A stretch of 25,119 nucleotides of DNA from Actinomycetota bacterium (GTDB taxonomy: Bacteria > Actinomycetota > UBA4738 > JACQTL01). Below, piece after piece: positions 16,548-16,681 of this stretch (its first letter is position 1; every line of letters starts with the position of its first letter). The translations under genes were made by a program, and so were the position numbers. Under the pieces are notes generated by a model. It made no database searches. It saw only the letters and a program-made list of their open reading frames with translations, and was not told the DNA's origin. The stretch covers positions 1-25,119 of the forward strand of contig DATLUW010001014.1 in NCBI GenBank assembly GCA_035577825.1. The letters run 5' to 3'.

Positions 16548-16586
16548 TCCCCTTTAAGGACCGGTCCCGTGAGGCCGGAAAGGAGG
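16548..16586 (+). promoter_or_regulatory. PyrR-binding RNA element
   Basis: CCUUUAA...GGUCCCGUGAGGCC...GAAAGG matches 12 of 14 positions of ARUCCNGNGAGGYU. Upper stem CCGGUC/GGCCGG, CCGUGA loop, lower stem CCUUU/AAAGG. Confidence 0.92.
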
Positions 16587-16597
16587 CGAGGCTGAAG

Positions 16598-16681
16598 ATG
16601 CTGTACACGTGCGCCCCGCGGCTCGAGCCGCCGGGCGTTTTTTCATACCGGGGGGCCGGGACGGCCTCCCGACCGTGGTGA
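16598..16681 (+). CDS. Putative 27-aa pyr leader ORF ([27 protein letters not shown])
   Basis: Preceded by AGGAGG (16581-16586) and GAGG (16588-16591). It crosses the terminator. Its TGA (16679-16681) overlaps GTG 16678 and ATG 16681 of pyrR. Confidence 0.5.
16612..16643 (+). terminator. Attenuator terminator of the pyr leader
   Basis: CGCCC-CGCGGC / GCCGC-CGGGCG hairpin with TCGA loop, followed by six T. Confidence 0.85.

Follow-up and report, generated by a model that had tools for sequence, protein, structure and literature searches.

A probable PyrR-controlled, ribosome-dependent attenuator in the pyr operon leader of an uncultured actinobacterium

Described pyr leaders and the locus under study

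In Escherichia coli, the leader ORF of pyrBI spans an intrinsic terminator, and a ribosome that closely follows the polymerase prevents the hairpin from forming; UTP is sensed via polymerase pausing at U-runs. In Mycobacterium smegmatis, where the work is attributed to Fields and Switzer in 2007, the 3' arm of the PyrR box reportedly carries the Shine–Dalgarno (SD) sequence of pyrR itself and there is no terminator. For Thermus strain ZO5, Van de Casteele and colleagues are said to have proposed in 1997 a form of pyr attenuation in which, together with PyrR, a translating ribosome replaces the antiterminator. To our knowledge, ribosome-mediated attenuation under PyrR has only ever been proposed from sequence and never proven, and a full-text literature search, in which the 1997 paper itself lay outside the searched text, found no description of the Thermus mechanism. 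The pyr attenuators of Bacillus subtilis depend on an RNA antiterminator that is disrupted by PyrR binding, with three sites per operon and no leader ORF (Lu and Switzer 1996 and Turnbough and Switzer 2008, via PMC6524683, PMC1913097).

The window analysed in this study is a stretch of 25 119 nt from the genome of a high-G+C uncultured actinobacterium, the closest public contigs of which are labelled Actinomycetes or Actinomycetota MAGs. Pfam assignments gave the gene order as pilus genes, aroK–aroB, an M24 peptidase gene, efp, nusB, an ornithine-cyclodeaminase-like gene, pyrR–pyrB–pyrC–carA–carB and a pyrK-like gene (Table 1). The region at 531–9248 encodes a PKD-domain protein, PilN- and PilO-like proteins and several ORFs without a Pfam match, and is probably a type IV pilus locus. 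A PyrR box lies directly 5' of pyrR–pyrB–pyrC–carAB, in a genome that itself encodes PyrR, and the spacer ahead of pyrR measures 240 nt. The closest solved chain to the PyrR of the window is 1ufr_A, which we take to be the PyrR of Thermus thermophilus HB8.

A scan of the window with a strict consensus promoter gave no match, and the promoter listed in Table 1 was found through conservation. When about 30 related leaders are aligned, its boxes (GTTGAc, 17–18 nt, TATCCT) fall at a conserved position, 10–17 nt 5' of the PyrR hairpin. From this predicted promoter, the transcript is expected to start near 16542, and the short conserved distance implies that the hairpin is the first RNA to be made.

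Table 1. Positions of the genes and predicted regulatory elements of the pyr locus within the window
Feature	Positions	Strand	Details
Predicted promoter	16506–16535	+	−35 TTGAAG 16506–16511, 18-nt spacer, −10 TATCCT 16530–16535
Predicted PyrR-binding hairpin	16546–16591	+	RF00515; fold of −16.5 kcal/mol
Leader ribosome-binding tract AGGAGGCGAGG	16581–16591	+	AGGAGG 16581–16586, GAGG 16588–16591
Leader ORF, 27 codons	16598–16681	+	ATG 16598; stop TGA 16679–16681
Intrinsic terminator	16611–16643	+	11-bp G+C-rich stem 16611–16638, −21.8 kcal/mol; T6 16638–16643
Second hairpin	16649–16671	+	10 bp, −20.7 kcal/mol; lies in the 3' portion of the leader ORF and is not followed by a U-tract
Third hairpin	16673–16690	+	7 bp; GTG 16678 and ATG 16681 in its 5' arm and loop
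pyrR	16678 (GTG) or 16681 (ATG) to 17226	+	NCBIfam PyrR equivalog NF003549, 249.7 bits; Pfam Pribosyltran
pyrB	17303–18343	+	Pfam
pyrC	18336–19640	+	Pfam
carA	19684–20835	+	Pfam
carB	20839–24135	+	Pfam
pyrK-like gene	23987–25069	+	Pfam

Anatomy of the PyrR hairpin, leader ORF and terminator

The Rfam model RF00515 matches the window at 16547–16645 with 46.6 bits (E 4.9e-5), which is below its gathering score of 54, and at the gathering threshold Rfam gave no match in the window. The model describes a binding hairpin with a conserved internal UUUAA and the loop consensus RUCC-G-GAGG. The match is of full length (model positions 1–115) and spans both the binding hairpin and the terminator, with the hairpin part aligned at high posterior probability; score is lost because the middle segment is shortened, at 11 nt compared to 26 in the model. 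No second PyrR box was found with RF00515, at E values of up to 1, in the pyrR–pyrB spacer or in the rest of this 88 %-complete genome. The hairpin consists of a lower stem (16546–16555 with 16582–16591), an internal UUAAGGA, an upper stem (16561–16566 with 16573–16578) and the loop CCGUGA, and its 3' arm reads AAAGGAGGCGAGG. Among 33 aligned leaders the core of the hairpin is almost invariant, as is expected of an RNA that is recognized by a protein.

The original prediction, made from this sequence alone, described an SD sequence buried in the 3' arm of the lower stem, a leader ORF that crosses the terminator and stops within GTGATG, and a pyrR gene that lacks an SD of its own, and each of these elements was found in place. 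The tract AGGAGGCGAGG lies wholly inside the 3' arm of the lower stem, where AGGAGG is paired (16551–16555 with 16582–16586). The second GAGG, 6 nt 5' of the leader ATG, is paired as well, through the extension of the stem (with 16546–16549). The spacer between AGGAGG and the ATG is 11 nt, which is rather long, and related leaders carry AAGGGAG(G) at the position of this tract. As the hairpin is stable alone, with about −8 kcal/mol in its lower stem, the SD would be partly hidden even without PyrR. The value for the lower stem compares with a rough −15 kcal/mol for a duplex with a canonical anti-SD.

The leader ORF contains the whole terminator, both stem and T6, which begins 13 nt after the ATG and falls inside codons 5–16. 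At its other end, the stop codon within GTGATG overlaps both candidate starts of pyrR, and inspection of the 20 nt upstream of pyrR revealed no GGAGG-like SD. Two further hairpins lie between the terminator and the first codons of pyrR. The second is likely to close the initiation region of pyrR, and leaders of the same genus have a hairpin of other sequence at its place; the third, for which the same-genus leaders show a similar GGCC...GGCC hairpin, may have a role at the pyrR start codons. There is no U-run in 16592–16637, where the only T-tract is that of the terminator itself, and no pause signal was identified. The 27-residue leader peptide gave no NCBIfam match, as expected at such a length.

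Two further readings of the coding sequence across the terminator were considered and set aside. Upstream of its start, the pyrR frame stays open across the terminator as far as GTG 16609, and an N-terminally extended pyrR starting there would place the terminator inside the gene. PyrR homology, including that to 1ufr, begins at 16681, and no SD precedes 16609. Additionally, the leader encodes EPPG, a polyproline-type stall motif, at 16625–16636, where it spans the terminator 3' arm, and the efp gene is found 2.3 kb upstream. An EF-P-type stall was rejected as the motif is not conserved (leaders of the same genus read RPG), and it is probably incidental.

Conservation of the coupled frame and the weighing of rival explanations

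Taken by itself, the leader frame of the window is unremarkable by chance, as 14.8 % of dinucleotide-preserving shuffles of its box-to-pyrR segment also give a coupled frame, and its significance rests on comparison with relatives. For this comparison, pyrR loci were drawn from two sets, 80 species genomes spread over many phyla and 60 genomes that represent eight families of the window's order. The 35 leaders with a PyrR box came from seven families of the order and from six further uncultured Actinomycetota. A coupled leader frame is present in 33/35 of these, compared to a mean of 19.5 % expected in shuffles that keep the stop context, although the relatives share ancestry and the 33 are not independent events. 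When two positive leaders from genomes flagged as unpublished (L088 and L097) are left out, the count is 31/33; the uninformative leader L104 is also from such a genome.

In the 33 positive leaders, a start codon (ATG, GTG or TTG) follows AAGG(G)AG at a distance of 0–15 nt, mostly 8–15 nt, and the stop meets the pyrR start as TGATG or NTGA, with one family ending 7–10 nt inside pyrR. Frame lengths span 15–34 codons and, apart from the stretches that the terminator encodes, the peptides vary, which implies that the frame was preserved through many indels. The two failures are each of a particular kind. In L092 the frame is open to the usual stop, but from a CTG, with no ATG, GTG or TTG at that place; in L087 a repeat element is inserted right after the leader ATGA.

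These counts bear upon the explanation that the frame arose by chance in G+C-rich DNA, with PyrR only stabilizing a terminator-adjacent hairpin and translation having no role. The shuffles of the window and the pyrR frame that is likewise open through the terminator would both suit this explanation. It is nevertheless extremely unlikely, given that 33 of the 35 leaders keep the frame despite many changes in length and that an SD could not be accommodated ahead of many pyrR starts. The latter follows from the U-tract, which abuts the pyrR start in about 13 leaders.

The terminator is conserved to a similar extent. It was detected in 34/35 leaders, with L015 the only one in which the script found none, and its stem shows compensatory changes at seven pairs. 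A U-rich tract follows the stem in every family, in DNA of about 70 % G+C. The distance from the leader start to the terminator stem has a median of 13 nt and is 11–16 nt in most leaders, and that from the terminator to the pyrR start varies from 2 to 51 nt. Longer leaders have a second hairpin over the pyrR initiation region, in some cases including an SD. Downstream, the stop codon of pyrR and the start codon of pyrB share an NTGA in 31/33 relatives, and thus leader, pyrR and pyrB form a translationally linked chain.

The main rival to regulated termination is a purely translational relay, in which PyrR blocks translation of the leader, and expression of pyrR (and of pyrB in the relatives) is lost through failed coupled reinitiation. 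The hairpin and U-tract would then be a structural element or a leaky constitutive terminator, the efficiency of which is unchanged by the ribosome. Such a relay is consistent with the chain of overlaps from leader to pyrR to pyrB, with the hairpins that cover the pyrR initiation region and with the very little time that a ribosome would have to beat the folding of the terminator. However, a G+C-rich stem with compensatory changes and a U-rich tract is kept in 34/35 leaders of a high-G+C lineage, and a strong unregulated terminator would silence an essential operon. The relay also needs no fixed spacing, whereas the distance from start to terminator is held at 11–16 nt and everything downstream varies. 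We therefore regard the relay as unlikely, and termination controlled through the leader ribosome as the preferred reading.

A third explanation is an RNA switch of the Bacillus type, in which, when PyrR is absent, an antiterminator forms between the 3' arm of the PyrR hairpin and the terminator 5' arm, and the leader frame is incidental. Each leader was refolded while the terminator 3' arm was masked. Under this constraint, 10 Bacillus-type comparators, all from other phyla, lost the PyrR hairpin, and their terminator 5' arm paired upstream, as a classical antiterminator. Among the leaders of the window's order, the PyrR hairpin remained intact in 23/34, the lower stem was lost in 9/34 and the whole hairpin in 2/34. 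The only competing pairing in the window is a weak, interrupted helix (16587–16594 with 16619–16626; about 6–9 kcal/mol) that leaves the PyrR hairpin intact, and the pattern of alternative pairing varies even between leaders of the same genus. No conserved RNA antiterminator was found among the 34 leaders by masked refolding.

The end-to-end match to RF00515 favours a Bacillus-type switch, as do the 11/34 masked folds that open part or all of the hairpin, with the terminator 5' arm partly paired upstream, and some RNA–RNA competition may therefore occur. On the other side stand the shortened segment in which an antiterminator would have to form, the intact hairpin and weak alternative pairing of the window and of most other leaders, the lack of conservation of that pairing and a leader frame kept far above chance. 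Together these make the Bacillus-type switch very unlikely. The original prediction had noted only a weak antiterminator in the window and had proposed that related leaders should keep the layout of SD, start, frame and overlap while varying in peptide sequence. The relatives bear out both points, their peptides varying in length as well, and a strong antiterminator is not kept among them.

Proposed mechanism, its counterpart in Thermus and wider meaning

In our view, the locus probably carries a PyrR-controlled, ribosome-dependent attenuator of the pyr operon, an interpretation drawn from sequence comparison. Transcription from about 16542 would first produce the PyrR-binding hairpin, with the SD of the leader ORF as its 3' arm. 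When pyrimidine nucleotides are plentiful, PyrR with UMP or UTP would clamp the hairpin and exclude the 30S subunit. With no 30S subunit loaded, the terminator just downstream of the leader ATG would fold and RNA polymerase would stop at the T-tract. On RNA without PyrR, a ribosome would open the weak lower stem and occupy the leader start, from where its footprint would extend to the terminator 5' arm, which would be fully covered once a few codons had been translated. The terminator hairpin could then not form and transcription would go on. The leader ribosome would subsequently melt the two hairpins ahead of pyrR and terminate at the UGA in GUGAUG, and reinitiation at this site would be the way in which the SD-less pyrR is translated. 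PyrR binding, competition with the 30S subunit, read-through mediated by the ribosome and reinitiation are thus the steps that we infer from an anatomy that is itself directly observed and conserved. Timing places a demand upon this scheme: the leader ATG is about 45 nt from the release site, and the ribosome must therefore load while the last 20–30 nt or so are being transcribed, unless the polymerase pauses.

Three of the described systems each share part of this layout. With B. subtilis the window has in common the PyrR protein family, the consensus of the binding loop, a downstream intrinsic terminator and the place before the pyr genes, but it has a single site, a conserved leader ORF and no conserved antiterminator. 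With M. smegmatis it shares an actinobacterial PyrR box with an SD in the 3' arm, at which PyrR would block ribosome loading. In the window, however, this SD belongs to the leader ORF, 95 nt before pyrR, and the PyrR hairpin ends 87–90 nt before the pyrR start with a terminator between, an arrangement that does not fit direct repression of the mycobacterial type. With E. coli pyrBI it shares a leader ORF across an intrinsic terminator; pyrBI is not known to involve PyrR, whereas the window has no U-run before the terminator and its putative sensor is PyrR at the leader SD.

The closest counterpart was found in Thermus. RF00515 also matches in a T. thermophilus control genome, and a search with the back-translated 1ufr_A peptide found five metagenomic contigs of Thermus type (L112–L116), the PyrR of which is identical to PDB 1ufr_A at 181/181 residues. 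Contig L115 shows the arrangement of the window: the 3' arm of its PyrR box (393–428), AAAGGGGG, provides the SD for a leader ORF of 28 codons (433–519, ATG 433), and this ORF runs across a terminator with a stem from 470 and a U7 tract. The RF00515 score is below the cut-off in both, at 36.6 bits in L115 compared to the 46.6 bits of the window. The leader ORF of L115 ends 11 nt inside pyrR (GTG 509), in place of the GTGATG overlap of the window. Further differences are that the Thermus terminator lies 37 nt (12 codons) after the leader ATG, compared to the 13 nt of the window, which is within reach of an initiating ribosome, and that the Thermus pyrR has its own GGAGG 9 nt upstream, whereas the pyrR of the window has no SD and is preceded by two extra hairpins. 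The lineages also differ, the window belonging to Actinomycetota and Thermus to Deinococcota.

As the Thermus-type contigs show the layout of the window, its leader is of the same kind as that of Thermus and not a new hybrid. Our comparison thus retains the hybrid switch of the original prediction as the best-supported reading of the mechanism, on comparative evidence, but not its novelty. The difference in spacing (11–16 nt compared to 37 nt) tentatively suggests that in the window's order the initiation complex itself, and not an elongating ribosome, could act as the antiterminator.

Leaders from other phyla were seen to take several forms. Similar coupled frames were found in Omnitrophota (L010), Nitrospirota (L059) and one further MAG (L062). 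In two Chloroflexota leaders (L036, 1426–1489; L045, 1430–1492) only about 30 nt separate the end of the PyrR box from pyrR and a terminator is lacking, which is suggestive of direct SD occlusion at pyrR of the mycobacterial type. Six leaders from Ignavibacteria and low-G+C MAGs (L021, L024, L033, L049, L066 and L072) have an ATG 0–1 nt after the PyrR box, opening short frames whose stop lies upstream of the terminator or within it; their masked folds mostly do not displace the PyrR hairpin, which is lost only in L033.

A separate observation concerns a repeat element at this locus. Between pyrR and pyrB, at 17206–17302, the window carries a 76-nt insert with CATGA on both sides, at the junction where 31/33 relatives have the NTGA overlap. 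Together with the last pyrR codons, the insert makes up a structured element of about 85 nt (GGGGGGCU...AGCCCCCC), which is dispersed only in genomes of the window's family, at 71–85 % identity. Up to nine copies were counted in genome G006, six in G008 and three to four in the same genus, and one copy lies between the leader ATGA and pyrR in L087 (389–475). It resembles a small repeat of the MITE or REP type that would insert at start/stop junctions, and in the window it appears to supply pyrB with a GGGGGAG SD.

In summary, the order to which this actinobacterium belongs has a compact and strongly conserved version of the leader, in which a promoter and a PyrR hairpin of 46 nt are followed by a terminator whose distance from the leader start is 13 nt. 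Both the window and the Thermus leaders score below the Rfam cut-off for PyrR, which indicates that annotation under-reports PyrR regulation in high-G+C phyla. The natural variants, with leaders of 15–34 codons, with and without a pyrR SD and in one case interrupted by a repeat, would make the mechanism easy to test. If the initiation complex is the antiterminator, the 30S subunit and PyrR would be direct competitors for one and the same site on the RNA. A single binding event would then decide termination within about 20–30 nt of transcription, and the same event would license translation of the SD-less pyrR and, in the relatives, of pyrB.
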